From the IMG/VR virus record IMGVR_UViG_3300048573_000087, positions 1 through 50,933 of that record: a stretch of DNA of 50,933 nt. One strand, written 5' to 3'. The notes below the pieces were generated by a model. The model saw only the letters and a list, made by a program, of their open reading frames with translations, did not search any database and was not told the DNA's origin. Source of the DNA: a virus. Taxonomy: Duplodnaviria > Caudoviricetes. This document shows, piece by piece, positions 30,190 to 36,193 of the stretch. Each line of letters begins with the position of its first letter. Position 1 is the stretch's first letter. Position numbers and translations under genes: made by a program.

Positions 30190-30645
30190 TTAGTCTACCA
30201 CCTTTGAATAAATGTGTTCGTGAAGGTCATATCCTCTGGAAATAAGCATCCGGGAGAAATCGTGTTCGGGCTTCATGTGCATGAAGAACCAGTTTACTCC
30301 TCGTAGTTCTTTTAACCGATCTTCCGAAAATTTCAATAACCTCATTCCAGCCAGCTTTCCACGGTACTCTGGCGATATGTAGAAGATGTCGTTAAGGGCG
30401 CACAGCATTCCACTATAATGTGGGTGTGGATTAATAAAGTAACAATTATACCCAACAAGAGTGCCGTCGTCTGCTCTGGCCGTAAAGATGTACAGCATTT
30501 CCGCCTGCTCAGCTTTATAGTAGAAATCCCAGTTAGGGTCGTATTTTACTTTGTCCTGATGCTTGGCAAGTTCTTTATAGTGCTTCTCAAATAACGGCAT
30601 GGCCTCAATAATAACAGTTGCTATTGTTTCTTGTTGATATCTCAT
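30190..30645 (-). CDS. GNAT-fold protein (T7 gp13-like position)
   Basis: LVGY, DIFYISPEYRG; start MRYQQ by ATGA overlap. Confidence 0.75.
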   Translation of the reverse strand: MRYQQETIATVIIEAMPLFEKHYKELAKHQDKVKYDPNWDFYYKAEQAEMLYIFTARADDGTLVGYNCYFINPHPHYSGMLCALNDIFYISPEYRGKLAGMRLLKFSEDRLKELRGVNWFFMHMKPEHDFSRMLISRGYDLHEHIYSKVVD

Positions 30646-30983
30646 ACTTCGGTTCCTCCCTCTATTGGGAAGGACCACCCATACATATGTAAATCTTTTC
30701 CCGGCTCACTTCTAAAACGGAACTGTACGGCCTTACCAGAACCTCGCACCTTGTTCTTAGTTACAACTATATCATATCCCGGATCAAACGTCTCTGGAAG
30801 CACATCCGGGGCCACCATTATCCGAAAGTGTCTATACGCCTGAAACTCAGGTGTGTACTTCCCTCCGGAGGCGGAATTGGCGAAATCCCACCTAGCTTGC
30901 ACCATGCACGAACTTGCTGGAGCAAGTATTGCTGACACGCACTCGGCGGCAGGGGCAAGAAGTGTTGTTACACTAAAAGACAT
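30642..30983 (-). CDS. C-terminal fragment of tail tubular protein B (nozzle)
   Basis: SSCMVQARWDFANS, QAYR, VVTKNKVRGSGKAVQFRFRSEPGKDLHMYGW resemble, from recall, the C-terminus of this family's nozzle. Confidence 0.75.
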   Translation of the reverse strand: MSFSVTTLLAPAAECVSAILAPASSCMVQARWDFANSASGGKYTPEFQAYRHFRIMVAPDVLPETFDPGYDIVVTKNKVRGSGKAVQFRFRSEPGKDLHMYGWSFPIEGGTEV

Positions 30984-32426
30984 TTAGCCAACCTCCGTGC
31001 CGTTAACATAGACTGACGCAGTTATTGTTGTGTTATACTGCGTCGATGATGTAACTTTAACTACAATAGTATCGCCATCTACACAGGTTCCGGGATCACT
31101 GGTATACGCCCCGCCGTTTTTTGAATACTCGCCGCCGGTAATAGTTAGTGTGGCGGGAACTGTTCCTATACCACTTATCGTAATTAAATTTGATGTAACT
31201 ACAATGTTTAGTGCTACATTCGCTACATCGGAGAATGGAACCGATGCCACAGGCAGTATTGGTAGCGCGGTTATCGTCACTGTATCGGCTGAACTTAGTA
31301 GTACCCCATCGAACACAGTTAATGAAAACACTAGAACTGTGGGCACAGATACCGTCGGAGTTATAAATGTTGGCTGCTGCACTGTTGCGCTTGAGAGAGA
31401 AACCACTGGTCCCTGCGTTTGAGTCCACTGATAGGTTAGTGGTTGACTCTCCGGGTCCGAACTTCCGGCGCCCGTTAATTGCGTAGTTTCTCCAGAATAT
31501 CTAGTCTGATCCGCGCCTGCATTAGCTATCGGGGGAAGATTGCTCGGAACATCTAAGACTGTTATATAAACTGTATCCGCGTGGGTTGCCGCATTATTGT
31601 CGGTAACTGTTAAACGAAATTGAAGGGAAGAAGGAAAAGCAACTGCCGGGGCGGTAAAGGTTGGCTGTGAGGCCGTAGTACTAGACAGTGTTACAGAAAT
31701 TCCGGCGATTTGTTCCCATAAATATGCACTTATAGTTCCATCAGGATCGGTACTACCTGTACCATCCAATGTAACTACATCTCCTTCATCTACATTTTGA
31801 TCGGGGCCAGCATCAGCGATTGGCGGTACGTTAGTGGCAGGAACACCAATAACCAGAGTTAATGTTGGCGGCGAGGATTCTGTGTAAGCATCAATTTGCG
31901 ACCAAGTAGTAGGCCCAGTCTCGGTATCCATCTTGATAGCGAGAGCGAATAGTTTTGTTCCGGTATTTATACAGGCATTGATGTCGGTTAAAACACCACC
32001 GGCTGTCAGGGCAATAGACTTTACGCCGGTAGTTCTGAAATCCGTTAAAGCGGCTTTATATACATTTCCCGTTGCGGCTCTGGATAACAGATTTGCCGCC
32101 GTATCAGATCGAGGGTCGAACTCATCTCCTGTAGTCCCATAGCCTAAAATAGACCATGCCGAGGAACCAGCCCCGGACGTGGAACTGATATTACAACCGA
32201 AAGTCGCTGTCAAAACTTCTTCACTGGCACCGAAGACAATGCTATTCAAATCGAATAAAGCCACTACTCGGTAAACCACGGAAGACTGAGGTCCGGCAGA
32301 ATGTCCGGGCCAAGTACCTATGGTTGTTCCATCTGTATCCGCCGACCAACTAGCATTAGGTAGGGGCGATCCCTGAGGATTCGGTGCTCCTAAGTCTCCA
32401 ACTAATGCACCGGGCATAAGCGCCAT
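30984..32426 (-). CDS. Ig-like/PKD (K319L-like) repeat virion protein
   Basis: Two PIA(D/N)AG.DQ...L.G.GS.DP......Y.W.Q repeats, a C-terminal Ig-like domain and an N-terminal beta-sandwich. Confidence 0.8.
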   Translation of the reverse strand: MALMPGALVGDLGAPNPQGSPLPNASWSADTDGTTIGTWPGHSAGPQSSVVYRVVALFDLNSIVFGASEEVLTATFGCNISSTSGAGSSAWSILGYGTTGDEFDPRSDTAANLLSRAATGNVYKAALTDFRTTGVKSIALTAGGVLTDINACINTGTKLFALAIKMDTETGPTTWSQIDAYTESSPPTLTLVIGVPATNVPPIADAGPDQNVDEGDVVTLDGTGSTDPDGTISAYLWEQIAGISVTLSSTTASQPTFTAPAVAFPSSLQFRLTVTDNNAATHADTVYITVLDVPSNLPPIANAGADQTRYSGETTQLTGAGSSDPESQPLTYQWTQTQGPVVSLSSATVQQPTFITPTVSVPTVLVFSLTVFDGVLLSSADTVTITALPILPVASVPFSDVANVALNIVVTSNLITISGIGTVPATLTITGGEYSKNGGAYTSDPGTCVDGDTIVVKVTSSTQYNTTITASVYVNGTEVG

Positions 32427-34123: not shown

Positions 34124-34126
34124 TTA

Positions 34127-36193
34127 TTAATCTCCACATATCCATTGAGTTTCCGTTCGTCTTAAATAAACGAAAAGGTAAGGAACTTGTTTTCTTCGCA
34201 TTACATCCCCGCCTGTCTTAAGTCCTGTAATAACATAAGCAGCAGCATCTATGCCGATTGTGTCGTAGGTATACCAGTCAAGCCACGAAGTATTCCTAAG
34301 TGTAGAGAAGGTTACATTGTTGGTGGAAACGTATGTTAAGAATCGGATTTTATTTATTGAATCCGCGTATCCTTTGCTTGCAACTACCCCCATTACATAG
34401 GCCGGAGTTACAGGAATAGTGTGCGGTGCGAAGGCCCCTAAACGCAGGTCCACAACAAGCAACTTGTTATACTTGTAAGTATAAGATGCATCTGTTGCGT
34501 ACATAAAGTAAATGCGCTTTAATATATCATCGTAGGCCGCTGCTATGTAGGCTTTGTTGGCGTCTGGAATAGCCGTAAAGGCCGTCTTAACGGTAGCATC
34601 CGTTATTGATTGCGATGTTAAGAACCCGCTTATCTTGTCTTGGGCGAGGGTATAGAGTCCCTGATACGCAGCCAAGTATGGAACATTCTCAACTATAACC
34701 ACGCTAGCTGGAGACGAACACCCAATCGTTGTTACCTGCCGGGTAGAATACGATGTGGCCTTAAAATGCTCAGAGTCGCCCCCGCCAATCTCCCACAAAC
34801 CATTGTCTGCCGCTACTACCAACTTTGTTCCCACCACTACCATTCGCATAGTGGAACCAAGCGCAGGAATAGATATAGAACCACCATCAGATTCTACCAA
34901 TTCATTTATCTCTTGCGCTGTTGGGTCTGCCTCTTGATAGCATAACCCGAAGTCTTTTGTACTTTCTATAATCTTTGAAAAATGCAGTTTTCCAAGAAGG
35001 CGGGAACTAGGTGTACCAGCGTACCATACACGTCCTGCGAAAAACGCAACAGCCCGTGGGCGCACTGTCTCTACAATAGGTGTTGGGTTGGTAACGGTTC
35101 CAACCGTAGAATATCCTGCTGTAGTATAAGAGCAGATGGTAATAGCTGGTACGGGTACTGTAAATGTATCAGAATCAATTACGGTGCAAGTGTACGCTGC
35201 GTCCCATGTATCTGATGTTCCCGGGGCGCAACCAGCGCCGGTATCTTTTTTAAACGCCGTACCAACTAAGGTTACGCTGTTGCCTGTTGTGAGGCCATGA
35301 TTGGCAGCCGTATTTACTGTTAGTACGGCTGCGGCATAACTCAGACTGGAGTTTGCGATGTTATTTGATAAGGAGAACGATTGCGTTGTGTCAAATACAT
35401 TATGCAGGAAGTGCCCGCGAGAAGCAGGTGTATTCCCTGTTACCATGTTAACAATGTCGTCAGAGTGCCATGTCTGTTTTCCGGTGCCGGGATCGGTATA
35501 ATATCCATCGTGCATCACATCCGAGTTAGATGGATAGACGTTACTACGTTGCGCCCAATATAAATTAATCCTTGTAGAGTCCCATCCTTGGTTAAGCAAA
35601 TTATAGCTGTGTGTGTCGCTGAGCGATGAGGGGTGGGTTCCCACATCCAACGTATCCTCTACACCAGCAAAGTCTCTCTCATAAATAACATACCCAGTCT
35701 CCGAGATTGAATCTGCTACGGAGTTGTAGGTTATATAGAAGGGCTCAAGATACTTCCCAACAACAAATAAGACGCCCCGGCCATAGGCGGTATCCACGCG
35801 ATCTGCTACTACAAGAGCATCACTTATGCCAGATACTTTATGCGTTGTAAGGTCTACGGAAAAGGATTTTTTACCGCTGGAGAGTGGGACCCCGTGGGTA
35901 TAGAAATATAGAGTAGCGCCGAGTTGTACTATTTGGAATTTGAGGGATGAATCACCATTAATATCGAACCAATCATGGACACCAACCGCATCAGTTGTTG
36001 CAACTGTTTTACTGAACAGGGCGTATCCTGTTTCGTAGTCAATTCCTAACCGACGCTGAAACGAGCCATCAGGATTGAACACCACGTTATCACAGTCGGT
36101 ACAAGCGTCCGGGGGAAATACAAACGGACCCGCCTCAGTAATGAGGCCCTTGACAAACGTGAAGTCAGCTTGTTCTACGCGGTTTTTAGCCAT
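34127..36193 (-). CDS. tail tubular protein B (nozzle), N-terminal 688 aa
   Basis: FVKGLITEA, RRLGIDYE, FFAGRVWYAG, CYQEADPT...LVESDGG; follows tubular A; ends at KQVPYL...RTET. Confidence 0.85.
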   Translation of the reverse strand: MAKNRVEQADFTFVKGLITEAGPFVFPPDACTDCDNVVFNPDGSFQRRLGIDYETGYALFSKTVATTDAVGVHDWFDINGDSSLKFQIVQLGATLYFYTHGVPLSSGKKSFSVDLTTHKVSGISDALVVADRVDTAYGRGVLFVVGKYLEPFYITYNSVADSISETGYVIYERDFAGVEDTLDVGTHPSSLSDTHSYNLLNQGWDSTRINLYWAQRSNVYPSNSDVMHDGYYTDPGTGKQTWHSDDIVNMVTGNTPASRGHFLHNVFDTTQSFSLSNNIANSSLSYAAAVLTVNTAANHGLTTGNSVTLVGTAFKKDTGAGCAPGTSDTWDAAYTCTVIDSDTFTVPVPAITICSYTTAGYSTVGTVTNPTPIVETVRPRAVAFFAGRVWYAGTPSSRLLGKLHFSKIIESTKDFGLCYQEADPTAQEINELVESDGGSISIPALGSTMRMVVVGTKLVVAADNGLWEIGGGDSEHFKATSYSTRQVTTIGCSSPASVVIVENVPYLAAYQGLYTLAQDKISGFLTSQSITDATVKTAFTAIPDANKAYIAAAYDDILKRIYFMYATDASYTYKYNKLLVVDLRLGAFAPHTIPVTPAYVMGVVASKGYADSINKIRFLTYVSTNNVTFSTLRNTSWLDWYTYDTIGIDAAAYVITGLKTGGDVMRRKQVPYLFVYLRRTETQWICGD

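Follow-up and report, generated by a model that had tools for sequence, protein, structure and literature searches.

The window analysed here is a 50,933-nt stretch of viral DNA that makes up the whole of IMG/VR record IMGVR_UViG_3300048573_000087, rated 100% complete, and is the complete 50.9-kb genome of a short-tailed, Zobellviridae-like podovirus from freshwater, in which the tail nozzle gene lies in two pieces with a two-gene cassette between them. The late genes are located on the minus strand and follow the gene order of Zobellviridae-like podoviruses (CVT22, ICP2, PA11, SIO1 and relatives), beginning with terminase, a portal/adaptor-type protein, scaffold, major capsid protein, tubular protein A and nozzle, and continuing with an acetyltransferase, a small protein, a 1,563-aa internal virion protein, a 671-aa protein and a lysozyme-like protein. 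At the nozzle position, four open reading frames (ORFs) follow one another on this strand. The nozzle N-fragment (688 aa, 34127..36193) ends with ...RRTETQWICGD and TAA, and is followed by a 565-aa right-handed beta-helix protein without a leader (32426..34123), a 480-aa protein with one carbohydrate-binding module (CBM)-like, two PKD and one immunoglobulin (Ig)-like domain that ends with ...VYVNGTEVG (30984..32426), and the nozzle C-fragment (113 aa, 30642..30983), which starts with MSFSVTT. The two nozzle ORFs are 3,143 nt apart. These ORFs with their ends, the gap, the three junction strings and the sum of 1,846 aa all read from the sequence as claimed in an earlier note on this DNA.

Both fragments match the same protein family. 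The 688-aa ORF aligns with PHROG 8094 ("tail appendage", 769 positions) from position 1 onwards (E 5.5e-114; two stretches, the best covering 1-545), and residues 23-113 of the 113-aa ORF align with positions 680-769 (E 4.7e-27), in agreement with the suggestion that the small ORF is the missing nozzle C-terminus. Judging from these alignments, the match of both ORFs is not a matter of chance. By tblastn, the N-fragment matches 117 phage records and the 113-aa ORF matches 93, for which the listed coding sequences are named tail appendage, tubular tail B, head closure, stabilization protein or hypothetical protein. In the 26 records listed for both queries, the N-part and C-part matches are separated by only 3-48 nt (coordinates compared by eye), and the nozzle is therefore uncut at that point in those records. 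All five inspected relatives (L001, L002, L004, L005 and L006) encode the nozzle as a single intact ORF of 757-795 aa in the same synteny, whereas the window has two ORFs in the conserved slot that follows the tubular A gene and precedes the acetyltransferase/internal virion protein genes. The break is located in a length-variable linker between the nozzle body and its last ~90 conserved residues. Among PDB sequences, the intact L004 nozzle retrieved nothing usable, and a profile of the five intact relatives retrieved no match at E up to 10. In T7 gp12, the fibre dock connects propeller and C-terminal platform on the outer face of the nozzle (PMC6702177); by analogy, the cut would lie near the fibre-dock/platform boundary, on the outside of the tail.

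The closest relative found, record G001 (51,649 nt, CheckV 100%), provides the uncut counterpart. Its nozzle locus, L004, has one intact 788-aa ORF, with 73% identity to the 688-aa piece (over L004 residues 1-687) and 69% to the 113-aa one. G001 and the window are collinear along the structural arm, and neither cassette gene has a homologue in G001; among the minus-strand ORFs of the window in the stretch from portal to lysozyme, only these two are left unpaired there. Around the break, L004 reads ...RTETQWISGG-TG-SAIPSPASSCRVQARW, and the window reads ...RTETQWICGD, TAA TAA, the insert, and ...AAECV-SAILAPASSCMVQARW, so that the aligned ends are QWISGG-TG-SAIPSPASSC in L004 and QWICGD, insert, SAILAPASSC in the window. 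On the basis of this alignment, supported by DNA and protein comparison, the insert extends from 34129 to 30936 (30936..34129, minus strand), comprises 3,194 nt and replaces 6 nt (ACT GGT), running from the first TAA through codon 16 of the 113-aa ORF. Residues 1-16 of this ORF (MSFSVTTLLAPAAECV) are foreign and contain the strand missing from the Ig-like domain upstream, and residues 17-113 are the nozzle C-terminus. These comparisons indicate that the split nozzle is a derived state produced by insertion. The claim that a two-gene glycan-binding cassette divides a nozzle gene is thus upheld by the PHROG 8094 halves and the intact L004 counterpart. Two insertion routes were considered and rejected. 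Pfam and PHROG give only PKD/Ig-type families in the inserted ORFs and no nuclease, which argues against insertion by a homing endonuclease, and a target-site duplication is not seen, as LAPAAEC and LAPASSC are alike at only 13 of 21 nt (hand count).

Several other features of the nozzle pieces were observed. Cysteines flank the break on both sides, as noted earlier, one in ...WICGD (34133-34141, minus strand) and one in ...AAECV (30939-30941, minus strand). The intact L004 nozzle has serine at the left site (WISGG) and no counterpart of the second cysteine; a disulfide between the two after release is conceivable from their positions. In addition, the window and L004 share an extra cysteine-containing segment of ~75 residues (residues ~290-365; 35100-35330, minus strand) that CVT22 and PQ867841.1 lack (alignment A1). 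This segment lies near the nozzle cut site of the Melvirus genomes described below, and may mark a second hot spot for nozzle change. An 81-aa stand-alone ORF (P0129) on a 5,325-nt NCBI/ENA contig is 47% identical to the nozzle C-terminus, and may represent a further split nozzle or a frameshifted gene. Public gene calls place the starts of two of our ORFs internally, with an 87-aa protein (P0127) beginning at Met27 of the 113-aa ORF and a 426-aa protein (P0077) beginning at residue 55 of the 480-aa ORF, and automatic annotation therefore hides the MSFSVTT leader and the MALMPGALVGD peptide.

The arrangement might be functionless, either a defective variant or an assembly chimera in which the insertion killed the nozzle gene. 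It comes from a single metagenomic source, and split nozzle-C ORFs are rare in the protein collection. In the Logan assembly of run X1, one 21-kb contig spans 30600-36260 with 0 differences at a word depth of 25, and an assembler artefact is therefore excluded; run X1 is, however, probably the source sample, so that its reads are not independent of the IMG/VR record. It is also the only DNA run found to contain the stretch; no RNA run containing it is listed, and a near-identity DNA search of phages gave no match. Against loss of function stand the two base-for-base identical assemblies, the completeness of the record and the state of the fragments, both of which are open ORFs with starts, stops and ribosome sites. 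Compared with L004, the proportion of nonsynonymous differences (pN) is 0.19 for the C-fragment and 0.17 for the N-fragment, and the ratio to the synonymous proportion (pN/pS) is ~0.22 versus 0.21, given as proportions as synonymous divergence between window and L004 is saturated. No decay of the C-fragment is visible; as evidence this is weak, since a large share of the divergence may be older than the insertion. The G+C content of the insert (46.5%) equals that of the flanking nozzle DNA (46.0%) with no break in composition, so the insert does not look recent. Moreover, diverged copies of both cassette genes occur elsewhere (P0002, 66% identical; P0078, 65% identical). Taken together, these data make a dead or chimeric locus very unlikely.

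The junctions point to four separate products. Junction 1 (GAT TAA TAA ATG, in frame; 34121..34135, minus strand) is the insertion boundary itself, where the nozzle linker is followed by two stops (TAA TAA, 34129-34124). Its GGAG (34135-34132) is drawn from the nozzle's own Gly-Asp codons and lies 8 nt 5' of the ATG (34123-34121) that substitutes for the leader. At junction 2 (CGC TAATG; 32424..32441, minus strand), stop and start overlap by 1 nt with a -1 frame change, and AGGAG (32441-32437) precedes the ATG by 10 nt. At junction 3 (GGC TAA ATG, in frame; 30981..30996, minus strand), codons for T-E-V-G supply GGAGG (30996-30992) 8 nt before the ATG (30983-30981), which directly follows the TAA (30986-30984). 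Stop-to-start packing combined with such ribosome sites usually marks genes whose separate chains are made by coupled translation. Since each junction has a Shine-Dalgarno site (GGAG, AGGAG and GGAGG, 8-10 nt before the three ATGs), junction 1 has a tandem TAA and junction 2 changes frame, we read the locus as four coupled separate chains and not as one 1,846-aa protein. A promoter and terminator scan of 29500-37500 found no sites above the level of shuffled sequences, and none at the junctions.

Recoding would instead yield fused chains, at least as a minor product, if ribosomes read through TAA at junctions 1 and 3 and shifted frame by -1 at junction 2. The frames would permit it, junctions 1 and 3 being in frame and junction 2 offset by one base, and domains continue directly across junctions 2 and 3. 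The tandem TAA of junction 1 and the ribosome sites at starting distance argue the other way. TAA, the commonest stop of the genome, ends 26 of the 44 long ORFs, conserved genes of normal length among them, and Trp-CCA is the only tRNA gene found, with no suppressor tRNA; recoding of TAA was rejected on these grounds. No X XXY YYZ heptamer precedes junction 2, and an equivalent overlap on another contig, L030, is kept with TGA and other neighbouring bases. Fusion by readthrough or frameshifting, proposed in the earlier note as one option, is thus most improbable.

The 480-aa protein looks like an adhesin. Following its N-terminal peptide (MALMPGALVGD..., residues 1-22), it contains a CBM-like domain (~23-200), two PKD domains (~199-385; PF22352/PF18911, PF22352 with E 1.2e-30) and an Ig-like repeat (~391-480) of a type common in phage contigs that matches no Pfam family. 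The N-terminal domain of ~180 residues, predicted by AlphaFold2 (AF2) in the read-through form described below with a predicted local distance difference test score (pLDDT) of ~80-90, resembles chondroitin-sulfate- and alginate-binding CBMs in Foldseek, with template modelling scores (TM-scores) normalized to the target of 0.66-0.68 for 8wab and 0.59 for 7vbo. Its diverged copy P0078 (393 aa) is 65% identical over the first 200 residues, starts with MAIQSGALVGD and ends with ...HLYINGVEVG.

Junction 3 cuts the Ig-like repeat in front of its last strand. The repeat closes with ...TLTIGGVSDTFTVTT, or a close variant of it, at constant spacing in 10 of 10 related viral loci (9 distinct sequences), and intact repeats have the consensus end ...GG.S(D)TF.VTT (for example ...GGVSDTFTVTT), closing with F(T/S/D)VTT. 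The 480-aa ORF lacks this C-terminal strand, as does P0078, which stops at the same ...NG.EVG. In the window the sequence runs ...SVYVNGTEVG, TAA, ATG, SFSVTT, and the strand SFSVTT forms residues 2-7 of the 113-aa ORF, as the earlier note had recognized. Relative to intact repeats there are ~3 extra positions (Gly, stop and Met), so that a stop-start unit appears to have been set in the last loop, as opposed to a plain nonsense mutation. When the read-through form was modelled with AF2, the junction 3 TAA being read as Q only to test that reading, residues 477-488 (EVG-Q-MSFSVTT) were predicted as a strand (pLDDT 81-83) adjoining the Ig-like domain at 91-96. This model indicates compatibility, and does not speak to complementation in trans. 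From the sequences, re-joining of separate chains by strand complementation is the best reading of junction 3.

The 565-aa protein belongs to a family that appears, from its alignment, to consist of stand-alone proteins of ~550-600 aa. We found 74 homologues of similar length and aligned 22 sequences from this set (alignment A2), of which 20 have an extra N-terminal stretch; P0024 looks N-terminally truncated. These stretches are mostly short, hydrophobic and signal-peptide-like (judged by eye), and the window copy (MADANGYTA) begins exactly at the post-leader ADxNGYTA of the homologues. A virion-anchor domain of the kind typical of tailspike N-termini is absent from the protein in this alignment. 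The AF2 model based on the homologue alignment is a right-handed beta-helix with pLDDT 90.2 and a predicted TM-score of 0.92, followed by a floppy tail (...PFDVDLSGVSR) in which residues 549-565 fall below 50. Foldseek returned 33 PDB matches at E up to 0.001, with alginate lyases on top; they include PL6 and other alginate lyases, lacto-N-biosidase, pectate lyase Pel9A, AlgE epimerases and phage tailspikes. The predicted fold thus suggests a putative enzyme of the polysaccharide-lyase/tailspike-like type, a fold-class assignment only because the TM-scores on the query are modest (0.2-0.45). A Pfam search with this protein found no family at E up to 0.1, and a scan of viral contigs with it alone returned nothing. 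Together, the models make the cassette look like a glycan-cutting and glycan-binding system, and its relatives are mostly leader-bearing proteins on metagenome contigs and contigs of metagenome-assembled genomes.

Junction 2 divides a second motif. The window reads ...FDVDLSGVSR, TAATG, MALMPGALVGD. The myxobacterial-type proteins P0016, P0042, P0075 (three copies) and P0076 (two copies) carry ...DL.GTPR, three residues and (P/A)GA(L/I)E in a single chain, and P0079 and P0081 have DLSGTCRANPPTMGALEA and FDTDMSGTARAGTPGALEA immediately before the same CBM-like domain, so that all six contain ...D..G..R, 3-6 residues and GALE uninterrupted. That a D..G..R....GA motif is halved at this junction is therefore borne out by single-chain homologues. 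Among the 22 aligned sequences, four end at this Arg (window, P0002, P0018 and P0032) and P0031 ends at the same column with Trp; two read on and 15 end earlier. The sequence comparisons support the view that junctions 2 and 3 cut conserved modules.

The same boundary occurs on L030, a contig carrying a tape-measure C-terminus and other tail genes, and therefore from a different kind of tailed phage. Its beta-helix gene (P0032) keeps the leader and ends with ...FDVDLFGKSR and TGATG; the next ORF starts with MMGIEPGASVGD..., and the second following ORF starts with MCPIEPGASVGD and has a PKD domain. These consecutive ORFs of 91 and 129 aa (L030 3873-4541) stand after the leader-bearing gene amid tail genes, and on both of them MALMPGALVGD recurs as M(M/C)(G/P)IEPGASVGD. 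The Arg-to-Pro codon spacing is 14 nt in the window and in L030. The bases and the stop codons (TAA versus TGA) differ, so the feature common to both is the gene boundary and not a slippery site. These observations indicate that the R/PGA gene boundary predates the insertion into the nozzle. Regular expressions for both junction types, run over 100 sequences (99 loci and the window), retrieved only the window and L030.

These findings do not sustain the claim that the four ORFs form one ~1,846-aa nozzle with modules in a loop. The beta-helix proteins are a stand-alone family and the window copy starts at their post-leader N-terminus, the R/PGAL stop/start overlap pre-exists in the unrelated L030, P0078 ends at the same ...NG.EVG, the closest complete relative has no cassette, and AF2 models the beta-helix body as complete by itself. 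Of the related claim that the junctions cut through domains, the part concerning conserved modules stands for junctions 2 and 3, and the part concerning the beta-helix body, which models as complete without the next ORF, does not.

The cassette might also be a passenger (moron): the nozzle halves would re-assemble, the guest proteins would be soluble glycan factors released at lysis, and the cut motifs would be leftovers of capture. The beta-helix protein fits this, having no recognisable tailspike-type anchor, starting at the post-leader point of its homologues and modelling as complete by itself, and the same gene in L030 still has its leader. In addition, the phage already has a conventional tailspike-like gene in a second variable locus (44086-47708, minus strand), upstream of a small terminase-like gene. 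This gene encodes a 569-aa protein (44086-45795) with a PF12708 pectate-lyase-like domain, YadA_stalk and weak matches to tailspike PHROGs, whose similarity to a 308-aa ORF of G001 is limited to ~104 residues (76% identical); the locus also encodes a 345-aa glycine-rich-domain protein (PF21722), and is probably the conventional receptor-binding locus. It counts against a passenger that P0078 ends at the same cut as the 480-aa ORF, and that in phage A1002 the numbers of the two fibre genes (gp40 and gp41) fall between those of the two genes for the split nozzle, gp39 and gp42 (PMC13730344; order from the numbering only). On balance we regard a passenger cassette as rather unlikely.

The reading we favour, and consider probable, is that four coupled chains re-assemble on the tail and carry a guest receptor-binding cassette. 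A pre-formed two-gene cassette (beta-helix and CBM/PKD/Ig) would have been inserted into the variable linker ~100 residues before the nozzle C-terminus, and translation of the four ORFs, closely coupled one after another, would yield a separate chain from each. On the model of phage A1002, a normal hexameric nozzle may form again from the 688-aa and 113-aa pieces. The 16-residue foreign leader of the 113-aa chain may then give the last strand to the Ig-like domain of the 480-aa protein, tethering it to the nozzle, and MALMPGALVGD at the N-terminus of the 480-aa protein may pair with ...FDVDLSGVSR of the beta-helix tail, restoring the motif and attaching the enzyme to the adhesin. In this way, the phage would have a further appendage for binding and cutting glycans in addition to its conventional 569-aa tailspike. 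The fold-complementation tethers are the least certain part of this reading, and we infer the re-joining of the chains from the genes and models. A more specific version, in which the cassette has its own portable plug-and-socket and two fold-complementation joints (the grafted Ig strand and the hairpin-like D..G..R / PGA.VGD) chain the enzyme system non-covalently onto the nozzle, has a real but minority chance of being right. Because the R/PGA joint is also present in L030, such a device, if true, would be a general route for moving binding modules between phage types by splitting domains, not by fusing adaptor domains.

Several points weigh against re-assembly through cut domains. Its support consists of sequence and models. 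At junction 2, the beta-helix body models as complete without a partner and the half-motif sits only on a disordered 17-residue tail, so the structure may not depend on this junction; the two half-motifs fall in disordered segments (pLDDT <50 for the beta-helix tail and ~30 for the N-peptide of the 480-aa protein). No beta-helix precedes the motif in P0079 and P0081, and D..G..R..GALE may therefore be a free-standing element, not a beta-helix cap. At junction 3, the AF2 strand leans towards domain completion because the chain was fused and the alignment contained intact homologues. Modelling of the Ig-like region (residues 383-480) in complex with the 113-aa chain, run without controls, scored 0.18 against a mark of 0.34 and weighs on neither side. 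Strict degenerate DNA patterns gave no true match in viral contigs for junction 3, and for junction 2 gave 0 matches in viral contigs and 17 in genome contigs, all spurious, with stop-ridden upstream frames and no beta-helix. Short nozzle-C-like proteins number only 3 in 5.8 billion, of which one is the window's own and one resembles a contig-end fragment. P0078 comes from a 1,536-nt Logan contig and P0002 from a 37-kb (37,255-nt) JGI contig, and the whole arrangement is so far established for the window.

The gain and swapping of host-recognition parts decides the host range of short-tailed phages. If the cut domains act as plugs, foreign binding proteins could be hung on a phage tail by two small handles, the 16-residue tag of the nozzle fragment and the 11-residue tag of the adhesin, and the tags would also serve as a sequence signature in the search for further cassettes of this kind in metagenomes.

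The proposed joints resemble several known systems in part. In chaperone-usher pili, an Ig-like domain lacks its final strand, which is located on the N-terminal extension of the next subunit. Similarly, the Ig-like domain in the window lacks its last strand and this strand heads the next ORF, as seen at the sequence level and in the fused AF2 model. The window differs in that the donor is a phage nozzle fragment and that this phage is assembled in the cytoplasm, with no periplasm; no chaperone or usher families are present among the Pfam and PHROG matches of the genes examined. Our literature search found no account combining strand complementation with a bacteriophage tail fiber. In T4-like phages, free-standing homing endonuclease genes split essential genes, and the pieces are presumed to re-associate. 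In both cases an essential gene is interrupted by inserted ORFs, whereas the guests in the window are structural or binding proteins with no nuclease family in Pfam. The podophages KP32, K11 and KP34 of Klebsiella reportedly have branched receptor-binding systems in which a conserved N-terminal docking peptide of receptor-binding protein 2 (RBP2) binds RBP1 (PMC13352976). A short N-terminal peptide acting as a plug that hangs one tail protein on another is common to these systems and the window, where it is predicted from the genes alone, but the plug and socket of the window look like halves of a motif that is uncut in single-chain homologues.

Split nozzles have further counterparts in GenBank. 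Melvirus PQ867847.1 (L104) encodes its nozzle as adjacent 329- and 400-aa ORFs (2989-5190), and Melvirus PQ867853.1 (L103) has a 345-aa ORF (phrog_22216, unknown function) between the nozzle halves (2989-6194). Both come from oyster metagenomes, are cut at PHROG 8094 position ~317-319 with the joint TAGGAGAC...ATG, and are annotated without comment. Like the window, they are Zobellviridae with a PHROG 8094 nozzle in two ORFs and stop-GGAG-spacer-ATG joints. They differ in the position of the cut (~317-319 versus ~680) and in the guest of PQ867853.1, which is one gene with no recognisable binding domain and with no domain seen in common with the nozzle piece.

In the Pseudomonas phage A1002 (Kochitakasuvirus; T=9, 63.8 kb), the structure paper describes a nozzle consisting of gp42 (nozzle-base) and gp39 (nozzle-rope), rebuilt by added beta-strands, with docking sites for the fibres gp40 and gp41 on gp39, the C-terminal piece (PLoS Biol 2026, PMC13730344). 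A1002 and the window agree in that the canonical nozzle is divided over two gene products, whose genes enclose receptor-binding genes (the A1002 order being taken from the gp numbering). The platform-C piece of A1002 has a fibre-docking N-terminal extension, and the C-fragment of the window is likewise extended N-terminally. A1002 belongs to another phage lineage and is split inside the beta-propeller ~150 residues from the end, with a rope of ~470 residues, whereas the window is cut in a linker ~100 residues from the end and has a 16-residue extension resembling a guest Ig strand. The A1002 authors propose acquisition of complementary modules, whereas the window displays plain insertion relative to a 73%-identical intact relative. 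In the literature searched, a "split nozzle" turned up for A1002 alone (PMC13730344). With A1002, Melvirus and the window, split nozzles with guest genes are a recurring pattern. New here are two cuts inside modules of the guest proteins and a clean before-and-after pair, in which the cassette-free close relative records the birth of a split nozzle that the A1002 structure paper could only hypothesise.

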